Source: Nitrospirota bacterium
GTDB lineage: Bacteria > Nitrospirota > UBA9217
Length of the DNA: 64,000 nucleotides
NCBI GenBank assembly: GCA_963663225.1
Contig: OY760142.1
Span: 2,176,001 to 2,240,000 of the forward strand
Direction: 5' to 3'
The translations under genes were made by a program, and so were the position numbers. Shown here piece by piece: positions 3,830 through 13,629 of the stretch. The notes below the pieces were generated by a model, which was not told the origin of the DNA, did not search any database, and saw only the letters and a program-made list of their open reading frames with translations. Position 1 is the stretch's first letter; each line of letters opens with the position of its first letter.

Positions 3830-4255
3830 ATGCAAAATATGAGCAATGATAAGGCAGCGCGCATTTTTCTCATCGACGATCATCCGGCGGTGCGGCAGGG
3901 GTTGCAGCTGCTGTTTGAACAAGAGGGCCACATCGTCTGCGGTGAGGCCGATGGCACTGCTGAAACTTTGGAGCGTATTAAGACGTCAGCGGCAGATCTG
4001 GCCCTGCTCGACATCTCCCTCGGTGAAGAGAACGGGTTTGCGTGCATCGCGGAGCTGCGCAATCGAAGCATCCCCGTGCTTGTGTACTCCATGCATGAAG
4101 ACGAAAACACCATTGACAGGGCATTTGACGCCGGGGCTGCCGGGTACGTTTCGAAGCGGGAACAGCCGGAGGTGCTGCTGGCTGCGGTGGCTGACGTTTT
4201 TGCGGGCAAGTGTCACGTCAGCCCCCGGGCGGTACGGAGCCTGAGAAGAACGTAA
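3830..4255 (+). CDS. Stand-alone receiver-domain protein, paralog of 1724-2362 lacking the HTH
   Basis: Near-identical REC motifs (DDHPAVRQG, DLALLDISLGEENG, YSMHED, YVSKREQPEVLL); ends at SPRAVRSLRRT* before the HTH; start is 3830 or 3839. Confidence 0.8.
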   Translation: MQNMSNDKAARIFLIDDHPAVRQGLQLLFEQEGHIVCGEADGTAETLERIKTSAADLALLDISLGEENGFACIAELRNRSIPVLVYSMHEDENTIDRAFDAGAAGYVSKREQPEVLLAAVADVFAGKCHVSPRAVRSLRRT

Positions 4256-4290
4256 GCCTGAGAACGGGATATAAAATAGAAGGGGAACAT

Positions 4291-6258
4291 ATGAAAGAGA
4301 TCGTCAACGAGGTATTCGCCTGCATGATAGTCGTGATCATGGGGCTGTCATCAATCGGTTGCAGCAGCAGCGGCAGCGGAGCCGCCGGCACGGCCCCAGT
4401 AACAAACTACTATCCACGCTTTGCCTACGTAGCGAACTACCTCGATAATACCATCTCAACGTATGCGATCGATTCGGCGACCGGCAGGATGAAATACATC
4501 GGCAAGGTCGCAGCAGGGTCGGGTCCGAATTCCGTCGCAATTGACCCTTCCGGCAAATATATCTATGCAGCGAACTATGCTTCCAATACCGTTACGCAGT
4601 ATACGATTGACGCTAATGGGGTGCTTGCGGCCATGACGCCGCCGAGCGTCTCGGCAGGGATGGGGCCTTATTCCGTCACGGTCGATCCCTCCGGCAAGTA
4701 TGTCTATGTTACGAATTGCGCCGACGGTACCGTTTCGCAGTATACGATCGGCGTCAACGGCGCGCTCACGGCCATGATACCGTCGAGCGTCCCTGCAGGG
4801 GCGAACCCCTATTCCGTCACGGTTGATCCCACAGGCAAATATGTTTATGTCGCAAATTTTGGCGCCAGCACCGTTTCGCAGTACACGATCGGCACCAACG
4901 GCGCGCTCACGGCTATGACGCCGTCGAGTATTCCGTCGGGAACAAATCCCTACTCCGTCACCATCGATCCGTCCGGCAAGTATGTCTATGTGGCAAACTA
5001 TCTTGCCAACACAGTCTCGCAGTATACAATCGGCGCCGGTGGTGGGCTTACGGCTATGACATCACCCAGTATCGCCGCAGGAACGGGCCCTTATGCTGCC
5101 GTTGTCGACCCGTCGGGGAAATATGCCTATACTGCGAATGGCGACAATAACACCGTCTCGCAGTATATTATCGGCACCAATGGCACACTCTCGTCCAATA
5201 CACCGGCAACGGCAGTGGCGCAGTCCTCGCCGACAGGCATTGTAATCAGCCGCGGTACGACAACGCACGCGGCCACGCCCAAGTACGCCTATGTGGCGAA
5301 TACCAACGGCAACAGCGTTTCGCAGTATGCAATCGCCGCAAGCGGTTCGTTTACGGCCTTGACGCCGGCGAGCATTGCGGCAGGGTCGTCCCCCGAATTC
5401 GTCACAACCGACCCGTTCGGCAGGTACGTTTACGTGGCGAATACCATGGACAACACTGTTTCGCAGTATACGATCGGTGCCGATGGTTCGCTTACGCCTA
5501 TGACGCCGCCAAGCGTCGCGGCGGGGACATACCCCGTCGCAGTTACGGTCGACCCGACGGGCAGGTATGCCTACGTGGCGAATTACTACACTATTTCGCA
5601 GTATACCATCGGCGTTGACGGCGCTCTGACGCCCATGACCCCGTCAGGCTTCTCGTCGTATGCTCCGTATTTTATTGCGGTACATCCGTCAGGCAAATAC
5701 GCCTATGTAACGAATCAAAGCGCCTATACCGTCTCGCAGTATACCATCGGCTCCAACGGTACGCTCACAGCCATGGGCACACCGACCATTGCAACAGAAG
5801 CAGTTCCCAAATTTATTGCCGTCGACCCCTCAGGAAAATACGCCTATGTGGCGAATTCAAACAGCAACACGGTTTCCCAGTATACTATCGACAGCAACGG
5901 AGCGCTCACGGCCATGACGCCGTCGAGCATCACTGCGGGGACGAGGCCCTATGGCGTCACGGTGGATCCATCCGGAAAGTATGTCTATGTTGCAAATATG
6001 ACCGGTTCTAATGTTTCACAGTATACCATTGGCGCCGACGGCGCGCTTACCCTGATCGGAACCATCGCGGCGGGTGCGTGGACCTATGCCGTCACGGTCG
6101 ATCCTTCGGGCAAGTATGCATACACGGCGAATAAAGGCACCGGCACTGTTTCGCAGTACACGATCGGCGCAGGTGGTGCGCTCACGCCCATGACGCCATC
6201 GGGGGTTGGAACAGGGAGTGATCCCGTTTCCGTTGTTACGGTGGGCGCCTATGAATAG
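4291..6258 (+). CDS. Lipoprotein with tandem lactonase/YVTN-like beta-propellers (about 13 blades, 6+7)
   Basis: Lipobox-like SIGC plus S/G linker; about 47-aa repeats P.SVTVDPSGKYVYVAN....TVSQYTIG.NGALTAMTP. Confidence 0.85.
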   Translation: MKEIVNEVFACMIVVIMGLSSIGCSSSGSGAAGTAPVTNYYPRFAYVANYLDNTISTYAIDSATGRMKYIGKVAAGSGPNSVAIDPSGKYIYAANYASNTVTQYTIDANGVLAAMTPPSVSAGMGPYSVTVDPSGKYVYVTNCADGTVSQYTIGVNGALTAMIPSSVPAGANPYSVTVDPTGKYVYVANFGASTVSQYTIGTNGALTAMTPSSIPSGTNPYSVTIDPSGKYVYVANYLANTVSQYTIGAGGGLTAMTSPSIAAGTGPYAAVVDPSGKYAYTANGDNNTVSQYIIGTNGTLSSNTPATAVAQSSPTGIVISRGTTTHAATPKYAYVANTNGNSVSQYAIAASGSFTALTPASIAAGSSPEFVTTDPFGRYVYVANTMDNTVSQYTIGADGSLTPMTPPSVAAGTYPVAVTVDPTGRYAYVANYYTISQYTIGVDGALTPMTPSGFSSYAPYFIAVHPSGKYAYVTNQSAYTVSQYTIGSNGTLTAMGTPTIATEAVPKFIAVDPSGKYAYVANSNSNTVSQYTIDSNGALTAMTPSSITAGTRPYGVTVDPSGKYVYVANMTGSNVSQYTIGADGALTLIGTIAAGAWTYAVTVDPSGKYAYTANKGTGTVSQYTIGAGGALTPMTPSGVGTGSDPVSVVTVGAYE

Positions 6259-6410
6259 GCCGGCCGCAGCATCCATGAGAAGGCGGTTACTCGTTTAATA
6301 CCCGCGCTTGCAGGCGACATGAGTCTTTACCGTCCGGGTGTTCATCTTGTCATTTTTGAGAATACTGATATACTACAAAAATTACATTGCAAGATAAAGG
6401 GCAGATAAAA

Positions 6411-7781
6411 ATGAAAAATAGACGATTGCATTTTTTACTAACAGTTTTTTTGTCCATTGTTTTCATAGCGGCATGCAGCGGGAACAATGAAGGCAAGACA
6501 GCAGCGGTTTTGATCAGCAGCATCACGGTCACTCCCCAACCTGTCGTAAGTTCGGCAACATTTACCGCATCGGTTTCCGTCGCATCCGGCGTGACACCGA
6601 GCTACCAGTGGAGTGTGAGCGGCATCACGGCCGGCACATCGAACAGCATAACCTGGACATCGCCGGGCATACCGGGGAATTACACGGTCAACCTGCTGGT
6701 GAGCGCGGCAACCGATACCGCGTCCCTGAGCACCACTATGACCGTTACCAGCAACAACCCGTGGCCGAAATTCCACCGCGATGCGCAGGCCACTGGCCTC
6801 AGCCCGGTCACATCGAACGCAACAGGCCATCTTAAGTGGAGCTACACGACAGGAGACTATATCGTCTGGTCTTCTCCGGCAATAGCTGCGGATGGTACCG
6901 TGTATGTGGGGTCGTATGACAACAGACTGTATGCGTTCACGTCCACCGGCGGCCTCAAATGGAGCTATCTTACGGGGGACTTCGTCTCATCTTCTCCTGC
7001 AATCGGCGCGGACGGGACCGTGTACACGGGATCGTGGGACGGCAAACTGTACGCCCTCAGAGCAGATGGTACCCTCAAGTGGAGCTATACGATAGGCGGA
7101 CGAGTTTCTTCTCCTGCCATCGGACCGGATGGAATGGTGTATGTGGGGTCGTGGGACGGCAAACTGTACGCCCTCAGAGCAGATGGTACCCTCAAGTGGA
7201 GCTATACGACAGGAGGCACCGTCTTTTCTACTCCTGCCATAGCCCCGGATGGGACCGTATATGTGGGATCGGATGACGCCAAGGTGTATGCGATCAAGCC
7301 TGATGGCACCCTCAAATGGACCTATACCACCGGACACTGGGTAGAGTCTTCAGCGGCGATAGCCCCGGATGGGACCGTGTACGTGGGGTCGTGTGATCGA
7401 AACCTTTATGCGTTTAACCCGGACGGCAGCCTTAAGTGGAGGTATACCGCGGCCGGTCCTGTTTATTCTTCCCCTGCCATAGGGTCGGATGGGACCGTAT
7501 ATGTGGGTTCGGATGACTACAATCTGTATGCGATCAAGTCCGACGGCAGTCTCAAGTGGAGCTACAATACGGGAGGCTCGGTTATTTCTTCTCCCGCTAT
7601 CGGCGCGGACGGGACGGTATACGTCGCCTCCTCCTCTCCCTATCTGTATGCGATCAGGTCCGACGGCAGCCTCAACTGGAGGTATGATATACTAACCATG
7701 GCCTATTCTTCTCCCGCCATAGGAGCGGATGGAACCGTGTACGTGGGGTCGTTTAACAGAAAGCTTTTTGCTATACAGTAA
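6411..7781 (+). CDS. Lipoprotein with PKD/Ig-like domain and 8-bladed PQQ-type (BamB-like) beta-propeller
   Basis: Lipobox IAAC; YQW...PGNYTV Ig-like segment; PWPKFHRD start of the propeller; eight SSPAIGxDGTVYVGSxD..LYA...DG.LKW repeats. Confidence 0.85.
   Translation: MKNRRLHFLLTVFLSIVFIAACSGNNEGKTAAVLISSITVTPQPVVSSATFTASVSVASGVTPSYQWSVSGITAGTSNSITWTSPGIPGNYTVNLLVSAATDTASLSTTMTVTSNNPWPKFHRDAQATGLSPVTSNATGHLKWSYTTGDYIVWSSPAIAADGTVYVGSYDNRLYAFTSTGGLKWSYLTGDFVSSSPAIGADGTVYTGSWDGKLYALRADGTLKWSYTIGGRVSSPAIGPDGMVYVGSWDGKLYALRADGTLKWSYTTGGTVFSTPAIAPDGTVYVGSDDAKVYAIKPDGTLKWTYTTGHWVESSAAIAPDGTVYVGSCDRNLYAFNPDGSLKWRYTAAGPVYSSPAIGSDGTVYVGSDDYNLYAIKSDGSLKWSYNTGGSVISSPAIGADGTVYVASSSPYLYAIRSDGSLNWRYDILTMAYSSPAIGADGTVYVGSFNRKLFAIQ
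7032..7209 (+). repeat. Identical 61-nt direct repeat in adjacent propeller blades
   Basis: TCGTGGGACGGCAAACTGTACGCCCTCAGAGCAGATGGTACCCTCAAGTGGAGCTATACGA at 7032-7092 and 7149-7209. Confidence 0.9.
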
Positions 7782-8073: not shown

Positions 8074-9522
8074 GTGAAAAATAAATACGGCGGTATTCGC
8101 ATCAAAACGATTTCATTCATTGAGCCGGGCGCGCCCGGCCTCCATATCTTCAGGAAATATCCTATACCCCGGCTTGGAGCGGTGCTGCTGGCAACGATTC
8201 TCAAAGAGCGAGGCTATGAGGTTAGAGTTTTCATCGAAGACATTGCCGAGCCTGACTGGTCGTACATTGAAAACTCGGACGTTGTCTGCATATCCACGAT
8301 CACGTCCACGGCAAACAAAGCGTACGCCCTGGGAAAACGTCTGCGGAATATCGGCATTCCCGTGGTCATGGGCGGCGCGCATGCCACGTTTCTCCCTGAC
8401 GAAGCGCTGGATCATGCAGATTTTGTTATACGGGGTGAAGGGGAGCAATCTCTCGGAGAGCTGCTTGAGTGTCTGGAAACTGGCACTTCAGGATTGGGGC
8501 ATATTAGCGGCCTTTCCTATAAAGACAATGAGGGAAGAAATATTCACAACCCTTCCGGCGAGTTCATACAAAATCTTGATGATCTTCCGATTCCCGATTT
8601 TTCACTCGTCCATGGCTGGAACACGAACACGCCGTACCCTGTCTCCACATCGCGGGGCTGCCCGTTCGCTTGCAGTTTCTGCTCCGTCATCAATATGTTC
8701 GGCCGAAAATATCGTTTTAAATCCGTTGAGGGGTCCCTGAGTGAACTGCGTCATGCGTCATCAGTGTCCCAGGCGACGAAGTTCATTGTGGACGACAATT
8801 TTGCTGCGCATCCGGAAAGGACGAAAGCAATCCTGCAGGGGATGATTGCAGAGGAGATCAAGACTTCATGGTCGGCGCAAGTAAGGGTGGACGTTGCAAA
8901 GGACGAGGAACTTCTGCGTTTGATGGCAGAGTCGGGATGCTATACGCTGTTTATAGGGTTCGAATCCATAAATCCGCGCACGCTTGCGGCATACAATAAA
9001 AAACAGAATAAACAGGACATTGTTTCATGCATTCGATCTGTTCAGAGTCACGGCATCCATATTCACGGTATGTTTGTTTTCGGCGCTGATACCGATGATG
9101 TCGGCACGATTCGGGATACGGCTGCTTTTGCGACCGATCTCGGCATTGACACGGTGCAGTTCATGATTCTCACACCGCTTCCGGGAACGACATTTTATGC
9201 CGACATGGAAAAAAGCGGGAGACTGATGCACAAAGACTGGAGCAAATACGATTCCCATCATGTGGTCTTTACTCCTTTATTGCTTTCTCATTCGATTCTG
9301 CAGACTGAAACGTTCAGGGCAATGGGACGCTTTTATACCTGGAAACATATTTTCAGATATTTAATACGATTGGAGTTTCAGTATGCTGCTATAGGACTGT
9401 TCGGTAAAACGGCAGTGAACAAATTCCTAAAATCATCAGATCGATATCTTGCTGACATGACGAGGCGGTTTAAAAATCCTGACTGTACAGAAATGCGTGA
9501 AGGTGATTTTTCCGGAAAATGA
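8074..9522 (+). CDS. Cobalamin-binding radical SAM protein
   Basis: B12-binding VVMGGAHAT; SRGCPFACSFC CxxxCxxC motif; DDNF, GFES, LTPLPGT; GTG start with GGAG RBS. Confidence 0.9.
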   Translation: MKNKYGGIRIKTISFIEPGAPGLHIFRKYPIPRLGAVLLATILKERGYEVRVFIEDIAEPDWSYIENSDVVCISTITSTANKAYALGKRLRNIGIPVVMGGAHATFLPDEALDHADFVIRGEGEQSLGELLECLETGTSGLGHISGLSYKDNEGRNIHNPSGEFIQNLDDLPIPDFSLVHGWNTNTPYPVSTSRGCPFACSFCSVINMFGRKYRFKSVEGSLSELRHASSVSQATKFIVDDNFAAHPERTKAILQGMIAEEIKTSWSAQVRVDVAKDEELLRLMAESGCYTLFIGFESINPRTLAAYNKKQNKQDIVSCIRSVQSHGIHIHGMFVFGADTDDVGTIRDTAAFATDLGIDTVQFMILTPLPGTTFYADMEKSGRLMHKDWSKYDSHHVVFTPLLLSHSILQTETFRAMGRFYTWKHIFRYLIRLEFQYAAIGLFGKTAVNKFLKSSDRYLADMTRRFKNPDCTEMREGDFSGK

Positions 9523-12252: not shown

Positions 12253-12296
12253 ATGCCGGGGAGTCCGTGCCTGTTCCGCGGGCTCTCCGGCATTTT
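12253..12296 (+). terminator. Putative terminator between convergent genes
   Basis: ATGCCGGGGAGTCCGTG...CGCGGGCTCTCCGGCAT long stem with G-U pairs, followed by TTT. Confidence 0.6.
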
Positions 12297-12351
12297 AAAT
12301 TGTATTCGACATCCTCGACCCGGTACTCCCACAGTGTGTTTAATTCTTTTT

Positions 12352-13026
12352 TTATTCAAAACCGAACAATATACTCTGGAACAACCTTGTTCCTGCCTGT
12401 ATTTGTTCCCCGACCACATAATTCCCCGGAGTGCCGTGGTTTATTTCCCGGTGTTCTTTTGTGTGTTCTTCTGACCAGAAGAAGATTGTTCTTTTTCAGA
12501 ACGCCTTAATAATGTTCTTTTCCGGGAGCGTAAAGAGGTCCAGGTCAGGCGCATAGACCACGGGTTCGCACCCTTTTCCAGCGGCTGAATAATTAAGCTC
12601 ACTGTCTATCGTCAGTTCCATCGGCTTTTTGCAGTGTGCGCATTCAGTGTGGACCGTGACCGTAAGCTGTTCATTTCGTAATCGCCCTTGCACGAAGGGC
12701 GTGGCAAACGCATCCACTGCTCAGGCCGCGTATACCTGCTCGCCGGTGCTGAAGGTCAGATGATGGGGCGTTTTCTCTATTGTTACCGGATATGCCCATG
12801 TCACCGATCCTTCAGGATTTCTGAACAGGAACGTCATGCGCTTTTCCATGTCCTCAAGAAGGAATGCGACCCGGTCGCGGGGCATATTCAGCTTTTGCGC
12901 GATAACATCGGGCGGGAGAGGCTTTCCTGTACGGGGAAGTTCTCTGACTGTAAAATGATGCACTCGCCGGTGATCGGCGGTCATAAAACGCACCGCATTT
13001 TTAAACCTCCTGATCTTGTCTTCCAT
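12352..13026 (-). CDS. MerB-like (alkylmercury lyase family) protein with two predicted selenocysteines (U102, U177), 224 aa
   Basis: AAGGAG RBS before ATG 13026. One frame continues through TGA 12723-12721 (VYAA-U-AVD, aligning with MerB LYAWCALD Cys96/Asp99) and TGA 12498-12496 (KAF-U-KRTIFFWS, aligning with MerB QSFCCHVHFFAS Cys159) to TAA 12354-12352. AYP...TPH and CAHC motifs are kept. SECIS-like hairpins follow both TGAs. Confidence 0.88.
12466..12483 (-). promoter_or_regulatory. SECIS-like hairpin for the second UGA
   Basis: UUCUUCU-GGUC-AGAAGAA: perfect 7-bp stem starting 12 nt after the UGA; the GGUC apex resembles the E. coli fdhF SECIS. Confidence 0.75.
12683..12701 (-). promoter_or_regulatory. 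SECIS-like hairpin for the first UGA
   Basis: CGCCCUU-CGUGC-AAGGGCG: perfect 7-bp stem starting 19 nt after the UGA, with G at loop position 2. Confidence 0.7.
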
Positions 13027-13068
13027 GCAGTCTCCTTTCGTAACGCGAATAAGCTATGTATACTTTTA

Positions 13069-13605
13069 TCATATTTGCCGCTCCGTCCGCGATTGCTTTC
13101 TGATGAGGATGATTTCTGCTGCTGGAATACCGAGCGACTCAAGAAAGTCCTGATGGGCTTCCGGGGCGAGCCGTTCAAATTCCGTATGCCATTTGCTTCG
13201 TGCCGTTTCATCCAGTCCGGAGTTCTGCAGCAATTGTATCCAGCGTTTTTTGTCCATGAACCCCGCCCTGGCAATTGCGCGATTGTTCTTTAAAAGAGTG
13301 ACAATAAAATGCTGCTGATTGCGCAAAGCACGGATTTCGTTGTTTAAGTCTTCAAGCCGCTTTTTAAGGAGATAAACGACGCCTTTTCCGCCATTGGTTT
13401 TTATGACCCTGTCGATGTCTTTGAGCGGCAGTCCCGCCCTGCGGTACGTGCATATTTGTTCAAGACGGGCGCAGTCTTTTTCGGTGTAGGCCCGGTAATT
13501 CGAGCTGCTTCTTCCCGAGGGAGAGAACAGTCCGAGCGAATCATAGTAAAGCAGGGTGCTGCGGGAAAGGCCGAATTTTTTCGACAATTTGCCGATGGTA
13601 TACAT
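13069..13605 (-). CDS. MerR-family transcriptional regulator (not the Hg-sensing MerR type)
   Basis: GGAGG RBS before ATG 13605; YTIGKLSKKFGLSRSTLLYYDSLGL...NYRAY winged HTH; coiled coil; C-terminal WHxEFERLAPEAHQDFLESLGI domain. Confidence 0.92.
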   Translation of the reverse strand: MYTIGKLSKKFGLSRSTLLYYDSLGLFSPSGRSSSNYRAYTEKDCARLEQICTYRRAGLPLKDIDRVIKTNGGKGVVYLLKKRLEDLNNEIRALRNQQHFIVTLLKNNRAIARAGFMDKKRWIQLLQNSGLDETARSKWHTEFERLAPEAHQDFLESLGIPAAEIILIRKQSRTERQI

Positions 13606-13629
13606 GATCACCTCCTGCATCAGCAGTGT

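Follow-up and report, generated by a model that had tools for sequence, protein, structure and literature searches.

The window analyzed here is a 64,000-nucleotide stretch from a Nitrospirota bacterium (GenBank assembly GCA_963663225.1, contig OY760142.1, positions 2,176,001 to 2,240,000), and the element in question is a gene on its minus strand, between positions 13026 and 12352, whose product resembles MerB (EC 4.99.1.2), to our knowledge the only known enzyme that cuts the mercury-carbon bond. Under genetic code table 11, this segment falls into an upstream open reading frame (ORF) of 101 amino acids with an ATG start (12721 to 13026), a middle ORF of 73 amino acids with a GTG start (12496 to 12717), and an uncalled tail of 47 codons (12355 to 12495). 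If TGA is read as selenocysteine (Sec, or U), the three pieces become a single frame of 224 codons that runs from an ATG at 13026 to 13024 to a TAA stop at 12352 to 12354. The two in-frame TGA codons, U102 (12721 to 12723) and U177 (12496 to 12498), are the sole codons in this frame that depart from table 11, and an AAGGAG ribosome-binding site that can be read off the sequence (13032 to 13037, minus strand) lies 5 nucleotides (nt) from the ATG. The initial annotation of this stretch had joined the two fragments and the 47-codon tail into one frame and proposed a "Sec/Asp/Sec organometal lyase"; on rereading, its coordinates and residues were all correct.

The read-through protein matched the Pfam MerB family (PF03243) over residues 83 to 215 with a score of 51.5 bits (gathering cutoff, 27; E = 1.2e-13), and its gene was the single PF03243 match in the 3.26-Mb single-contig genome. 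In phmmer alignments with the MerB chains of the PDB, U102 fell on the Cys of YAWCALD (Cys96), D105 on Asp99, U177 on the first Cys of SFCCHVHFFAS (Cys159), and C129 on Cys117, which agrees with the earlier placement of the two TGAs on Cys96 and Cys159 with the Asp kept three positions downstream of the first. The codon for Asp105, in the column of the MerB proton donor, lies at 12712 to 12714, and Cys129 belongs to a Cys129-x-x-Cys132 motif encoded at 12631 to 12642. Asp105 was invariant in all 87 rows of an alignment (A5) that covers the window-type family together with close relatives; C129 was likewise invariant there, and C132 was found in 70 of the 80 loci described below. An AlphaFold2 model built from A5 had a mean predicted local distance difference test score of 91.6 and a predicted template modeling (TM) score of 0.89. 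When this model was compared to the PDB with Foldseek, the best 11 matches were all MerB or MerB2 (E values of 1.4e-12 to 2.2e-7; TM scores of 0.53 to 0.79), and the match ranked 12th had an E value of 0.34. Profile and structure searches, which the initial annotation had proposed as checks, therefore both match MerB.

The same comparisons set the protein apart from the characterized enzyme. It shares the fold of MerB (PDB 3F0O, 3F0P, and 1S6L; TM scores of 0.69 to 0.79, E ~ 1e-12), and the three catalytic columns and the Cys117 column are likewise occupied, but its identity to MerB is only ~21% and it has Sec in place of both ligand cysteines. The MerB triad of Cys96, Asp99, and Cys159 is thus filled as Sec/Asp/Sec, an arrangement that is chemically analogous to the original but not identical to it. 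The regulator gene next to the window gene is co-directional rather than divergent and its product lacks cysteines in the effector domain, the genome has no MerA over the cutoff, and the hosts of the family are strict anaerobes with Sec machinery. No model of NCBIfam release 20.0 was passed by the protein, which gave three hits at E ≤ 1. These data indicate that the window protein has the MerB fold but is not a canonical MerB.

The case for Sec rests first on the behavior of the two TGA codons among relatives. A species-level scan, with one genome per species, found 149 relatives, of which 80 were kept and used in the analyses that follow; these 80 loci are 48 to 96% identical and come from genomes labeled as Nitrospirota, Thermodesulfobacteriota, and other groups. 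TGA was present at both columns in 80 of 80 loci (75 recognized by pattern and 5 read individually, with the codons rechecked in 79). Smaller samples gave the same result. Among 61 related genomes, the window's own included, 9 contained a match, and the 6 close homologues (54 to 99% identity, five genera) each had two and only two TGAs, placed at the same columns; Cys was found at both columns in the 3 distant matches (L020 to L022, 26 to 28% identity). In an even sample of 301 Thermodesulfobacteriota genomes, 23 of 23 strong homologues had two TGAs. Neither TAA nor TAG was seen at either column among the homologues, which had only TGA or Cys. Because TGA occupies both columns in all 80 related loci, the two codons are not chance nonsense mutations, as the initial annotation had argued.

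Exchange between Sec and Cys was seen at each of the two positions. Cys occupies site 1 in SaoL (a MerB-like selenoprotein considered below), in the divergent loci L121, L124, and L020 to L022, and in two NCBI proteins (P0013 and P0014) that end just before site 2 and nest inside the window-type clade in our tree; Cys occupies site 2 in L020 to L022. Past the second TGA, the amino acids are conserved but the codons used for them vary freely, as for Y203 (TAC in 42 loci, TAT in 37) and F221 (TTC in 49, TTT in 30). The homologue comparison that had been suggested as a check therefore gave only TGA or Cys at both columns, with conservation past each TGA. Metagenomic data agreed, in that contigs from two other studies (X5 record 8 and X8 record 23) covered both codons at ~97% identity with 23 to 26 differences elsewhere, and no other letter was found at either TGA among the 40 contig rows listed. 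Independent contigs thus keep TGA at both positions.

Each TGA is followed, within the coding sequence, by a hairpin that is a candidate Sec insertion sequence (SECIS) element. Hairpin 1 (12683 to 12701, minus strand) starts 20 nt past the first TGA and has a 7-bp stem and a 5-nt loop containing G-U; hairpin 2 (12466 to 12483, minus strand) starts 12 nt past the second TGA and has a 7-bp stem and a GGUC loop. For hairpin 1, 94.1% of cells were paired between columns 23 to 29 and columns 35 to 41 of alignment A3, compared to 33 to 59% when the partner was slid; for hairpin 2 (alignment A4), the corresponding values were 97.7% and 39 to 65%. Compensatory changes occurred in both stems, with 5 double changes from G-C to U-A in hairpin 1 and 10 from U-A to C-G in hairpin 2, the latter combining a Trp-to-Arg change with a silent Ser change. 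Synonymous codon choice was nearly frozen (entropy ~0) at codons 110 to 114 (CCC in 79 of 80 loci; TTC, GTG, and GGG in 80 of 80 each) and codons 182 to 187 (TTC, TTC, and GAA in 80 of 80 each) and nowhere else, and invariant residues outside these two segments use all their codons. Measured from the UGA, the loop G-U of hairpin 2 is at +24/+25, which is the spacing found in the genome's own selD, and in most relatives this hairpin has an additional lower stem.

Summed depth of metagenome contigs was up to 20-fold higher exactly at 12462 to 12488 and 12678 to 12731, the two hairpin regions, although this comparison shows presence only and neither depth nor gaps count as evidence. At these positions, short contigs of other organisms match that match nowhere else on the gene, a pattern that fits nucleotide-level conservation of the hairpins.

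The genome also encodes the machinery needed to insert Sec. We found selA (597 bits), selB (376 bits), selD (372 bits, with a TGA of its own), and a tRNA-SeC gene (selC), so that all four genes that the initial annotation had listed for checking are present. Several observations weigh against the selenoprotein interpretation. The window copy of hairpin 2 lacks the lower stem common to most relatives, and the loop G-U of hairpin 1, at +31/+32, is 7 nt further from its UGA than that of selD. When the window hairpins were folded alone, their energies were within the range of shuffled sequences (z of -0.33 to -1.23); because of this, single-sequence folding was uninformative and comparative data were used instead. 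A Rfam scan of positions 12300 to 13100 (E ≤ 10) returned three chance-level hits and no SECIS family. We found no RNA dataset containing the window stretch. Weighing the comparative evidence from the gene and its relatives against these points, we hold with high confidence that the two TGAs are Sec codons of a genuine two-Sec protein and not the scars of a broken gene.

The proposed mechanism begins with SelB and tRNA-Sec, which recode each UGA with the aid of the hairpin that follows it in the coding sequence, a step shown by comparative evidence rather than by protein chemistry. The selenolates of Sec102 and Sec177 would hold the soft metal of an organometallic substrate between them, and Asp105 would protonate the leaving carbon, as proposed for MerB; with two soft metal ligands and an Asp proton donor, the chemistry of the two proteins is likely alike. 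Organomercurials such as methylmercury would be the leading candidate substrates. The hosts are strictly anaerobic, Sec-using bacteria that carry the enzyme as a stand-alone gene, often with a regulator. Selenolates are deprotonated at neutral pH and hold mercury tighter than thiolates do, and this tighter binding should favor capture and cleavage at trace substrate and hinder product release. Since no MerA was found over the cutoff in the window genome (best score, 367.9 bits, versus 454.45; mer transport genes were not searched for), the metal product would pass to sulfide or thiols and not be reduced to Hg(0), and it would come off the enzyme only with the help of sulfide, thiols, or a partner protein.

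Homology, fold, and the occupied columns lead us to favor, with moderate confidence, a carbon-metal lyase as the product of the window gene. Mercury as the metal of this lyase is a more tentative proposal, to which we give slightly less than an even chance. Both estimates are held at these levels by uncertainty over product release, over other metals, and over a single-turnover role. The phrase "Sec/Asp/Sec organometal lyase" therefore stands in part: a hidden Sec/Asp/Sec MerB-like protein is borne out, while we infer the lyase activity and its substrate.

A serious, if doubtful, alternative is that the gene encodes a real two-Sec protein of the MerB fold that is not a mercury-carbon lyase. 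Such a protein might act on organometal or organometalloid compounds of tin, lead, arsenic, selenium, or tellurium, serve as a single-use metal trap or chaperone, or form a redox-active diselenide. The points that weigh against the favored function follow, and most of them favor this alternative as well. Beyond the lack of a MerA over the cutoff, the protein scored far under the NCBIfam MerB equivalogs NF009710 (51.9 versus 193 bits) and NF033555 (39.9 versus 200 bits). The regulators beside the family are Cys-poor MerR-type or MarR-type proteins and not MerR itself: the one in the window reached 37 bits against the NCBIfam MerR cutoff of 150.85 and has no Cys past residue 52, that is, none in its effector part. 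Half of the loci have no conserved neighbor, and the Pfam matches of the window ORFs around the gene were to a phosphoesterase, DUF1499, a glycosyltransferase, OsmC, and a B12/radical SAM protein. Once bound by two selenolates, an Hg(II) ion should come off only with great difficulty, which would argue against fast mercury turnover. Double-Sec lineages with Glu or Gly in place of the Asp show that the chemistry is not fixed across relatives, and for the Sec site of SaoL, doubt about mercury has been voiced in a preprint (Haft and Gwadz, bioRxiv 10.1101/2022.07.06.499078). A pure binding protein, however, would have no obvious use for a proton donor, and Asp105 is never replaced in A5; the whole MerB core is kept as well, and the host lineages are rich in HgcA.

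The HgcA association was counted. The window genome encodes an HgcA (G000:C1:975295-976275, minus strand; 394.8 bits versus a cutoff of 275) more than 1.2 Mb from the lyase gene; its N-terminal part has Cys-Cys motifs and no TGA, which makes it a non-Sec form. HgcA over the cutoff was found in 23 of the 39 holder genomes examined among the 80 holders. In the 301-genome sample, 13 of 23 holders had HgcA compared to 81 of 278 non-holders (odds ratio, 3.2; Fisher p ~ 0.01), a statistic that is uncorrected for kinship and in which one holder is the center of the sample. This link is only modest, and in the window's own family there was no enrichment, with HgcA in 4 of 6 holders and 25 of 31 non-holders; both results count against the favored explanation, whereas the HgcA of the window genome and of the 23 holders counts for it. 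Given the distance of more than 1.2 Mb, the modest enrichment, and its absence within the window's family, we rejected a strict functional coupling to HgcA, and we treat the link to mercury methylators as a lead and not a finding.

The closest described protein is SaoL, and simple membership of the window protein in that family would be a far less probable explanation than those above. According to the same preprint (Haft and Gwadz, bioRxiv 10.1101/2022.07.06.499078), SaoL is a MerB-like protein with one Sec, located in a Cys-Sec dipeptide and encoded in a nine-gene sao locus, and the Sec at the metal site makes mercury uncertain. The likenesses are real: both are MerB-like selenoproteins with Sec at the Cys159 column, both are cut at TGA in databases, SaoL is likewise found only in anaerobes, and the SaoL model (NF040728) was the second-best NCBIfam hit of the window protein. 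That hit, however, reached only 42.2 and 35.5 bits against a cutoff of 140, compared to 175.7 bits for a bona fide SaoL in our sample (L119), to which the window protein is 22.6% identical. SaoL keeps Cys at the Cys96 column, where the window protein has Sec, and site 2 of the window protein reads Phe-Sec-Lys, with no Cys-Sec dipeptide. The nine-gene sao locus was not found around the window gene. SaoC had no match in the window genome (control genomes gave none either), and no SaoP scored over the cutoff there, the best candidate reaching 195.8 versus 295 bits at a site away from the lyase locus. In a 91-row tree, the 85 window-type rows lay on one side of a branch of length 2.19 (Shimodaira-Hasegawa-like approximate likelihood ratio support, 99), and on the other side were SaoL, a further two Cys/Sec forms, and those with Cys at both sites; this tree is unrooted with respect to canonical MerB, which was left out, and its long branches are flagged as unsafe. 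Score, site residues, the sao locus search, and the tree branch led us to reject SaoL membership, and the initial annotation was right to suspect a difference from SaoL.

Other relatives place the window gene within a wider set. L121 (G135:C171:6577-6864) and L124 (G261:C50:1306-1581) combine Cys at site 1 with TGA at site 2, lack the Cys-Sec dipeptide, and are both under the SaoL cutoff (54.8 and 53 bits). L020 to L022, from genomes of the window's own taxonomic family, are the Cys/Cys forms noted above. All five are MerB-like, use the same columns, and keep the Asp, but they are only 23 to 31% identical to the window protein; we found no published name for them. Three very divergent MerB-like genes also have TGA at both columns: L125 (G208:C1:3285810-3286298, minus strand), with Gly at the Asp column, and L126 (G096:C44:30495-30878, plus strand) and L127 (G247:C612:2080-2454, plus strand), both with Glu there. 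The L126 genome also holds a window-type gene. Sec at the first ligand position would thus occur in at least three lineages of the superfamily. The window gene is not a one-off: it is part of a large family, and TGA at both columns also occurs in at least two other divergent MerB-like lineages.

Other selenoproteins invite comparison, for example the UxxU metal-binding protein (NF041115) and the double selenoprotein MbdU (NF045648), which, according to Table 1 of a review (PMC13188914), also have two Sec residues and are thought to bind soft metals. Their folds are unrelated to that of the window protein, and neither was among its three NCBIfam hits at E ≤ 1. In those proteins the Sec pair is close in sequence, as listed in that table, whereas in the window protein the two residues are 75 positions apart and meet only in the fold.

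We consider it quite improbable that the TGAs are read as an ordinary amino acid such as Trp, Cys, or Gly, through an altered code or near-cognate read-through. JGI calls of a few relatives do show W at both sites, but they do so because the caller chose table 4. In the window genome TGA is a normal stop that ends 613 of 1,676 long ORFs, and the TGA stop of the neighboring MerR-type gene is replaced by TAA or TAG in a same-genus relative. An altered genetic code was rejected on the basis of this use of TGA, the full Sec machinery, and columns that alternate between TGA and Cys only, and the hairpins lie at a SECIS-like distance. The least probable explanation, to which we assign almost no weight, is a pseudogene or split gene left by two nonsense mutations in a former merB-like gene: table 11 does give three pieces, databases list products of 125 to 127 amino acids, and in one relative the start of the lyase is replaced by a regulator gene remnant, but we rejected this explanation because of the invariant TGAs, the protein conservation past each of them, the compensatory changes in the hairpins, and the Cys homologues.

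The two-Sec family is in practice invisible, because gene callers cut the gene into stubs. In a collection of 5.8 billion proteins, its members appeared mostly as 125- to 127-amino-acid stubs named "hypothetical protein," just as the initial annotation had predicted of standard gene callers, along with the few JGI calls mentioned above. Table 1 of the 2026 review cited above (PMC13188914), which styles itself the most comprehensive, lists 119 selenoprotein families, and in that table the MerB fold is represented by the one-Sec SaoL only. We found no two-Sec MerB-like protein in the full-text literature; supplements and subscription journals were outside the scope of this search, so that an earlier description is possible. 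The two-Sec MerB-like family is thus a widespread variant among MerB-like selenoproteins that has apparently not yet been described, and to recover it, annotation pipelines would have to be given a new model that allows for two recoded UGAs.

How strict anaerobes without a mer operon break down methylmercury is an open question in mercury cycling. The two-Sec family is common in Thermodesulfobacteriota (23 of the 301 sampled genomes) and present in Nitrospirota, in lineages that often have hgcA, and would be a concrete candidate for an enzyme of anaerobic methylmercury breakdown. It would tie selenium biology to the chemistry of mercury or other organometals beyond the SAO system, and the natural series of U/U, C/U, and C/C forms could show what selenium adds to the cleavage of carbon-metal bonds. 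A bolder proposal, which we think unlikely but worth stating, is that the Sec/Asp/Sec family is a main mer-operon-independent methylmercury demethylase of anaerobic communities, methylators included. If so, a bis-selenolate site would capture and protonolyse trace methylmercury and hand Hg(II) to sulfide, and the net amount of methylmercury produced in sediments, peat, and digesters would depend in part on how much selenium is available. Those double-Sec lineages whose Asp column holds Glu or Gly would then represent sister enzymes acting on other organometals.

The neighborhood of the gene was compared across the family. In the window, a MerR-family regulator gene of 183 codons (13069 to 13620, minus strand; Pfam MerR_1, 57.3 bits) lies 42 nt upstream of the lyase gene; its product matches metal-sensor models only at residues 6 to 111, the DNA-binding half, and far under their cutoffs. 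An orthologous MerR-type neighbor was found in 20 of 80 loci, in 19 of them upstream, and a MarR-type gene takes the same position in 21 of 79, so that in 40 of 79 loci the gene immediately upstream, on the same strand, encodes a regulator (MerR type, 19; MarR type, 21). A thioesterase gene is nearby in 10. Beyond these three, no conserved neighbor was found among the 79 loci. The earlier description of the gene as MerR coupled accordingly holds for the window but not as a trait of the family. As far as gene order can tell, the lyase gene stands alone, in many loci with a regulator gene beside it, as would be expected in inducible detoxification.

The ends of the gene show some variation. In the window genus, stop codons lie just upstream of the ATG, and the protein is without the N-terminal extension of 25 to 30 residues seen elsewhere; L017, L018, and most of L025 to L102 start 25 to 30 residues earlier and have a conserved hydrophobic stretch there. 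In L019 (G011:C138, ~1365-2055), the first ~40 lyase codons are gone and a MerR-type gene remnant of ~46 codons runs into the frame, an arrangement that looks like a deletion or a misassembly; both TGAs and the remaining frame are intact. In a search for promoters and operators, no convincing sigma-70 site was found for the operon, and the region upstream of the regulator gene showed no inverted repeat. At the other end, a consensus scan marked a G+C-rich hairpin of 17 bp (12253 to 12293), a possible terminator with its T-run on the plus-strand side. It sits between the convergent ends of the phosphoesterase and lyase genes and may be a terminator shared by both.

Further along the window, a B12-binding radical SAM protein is encoded at 8074 to 9522 on the plus strand (B12-binding domain, 58.3 bits; Radical_SAM, 57.5 bits), some 3 kb away from the lyase gene. 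Two more plus-strand ORFs, at 4042 to 6258 and 6387 to 7781, contain many similar repeats of ~45 residues and have hydrophobic, leader-like starts.

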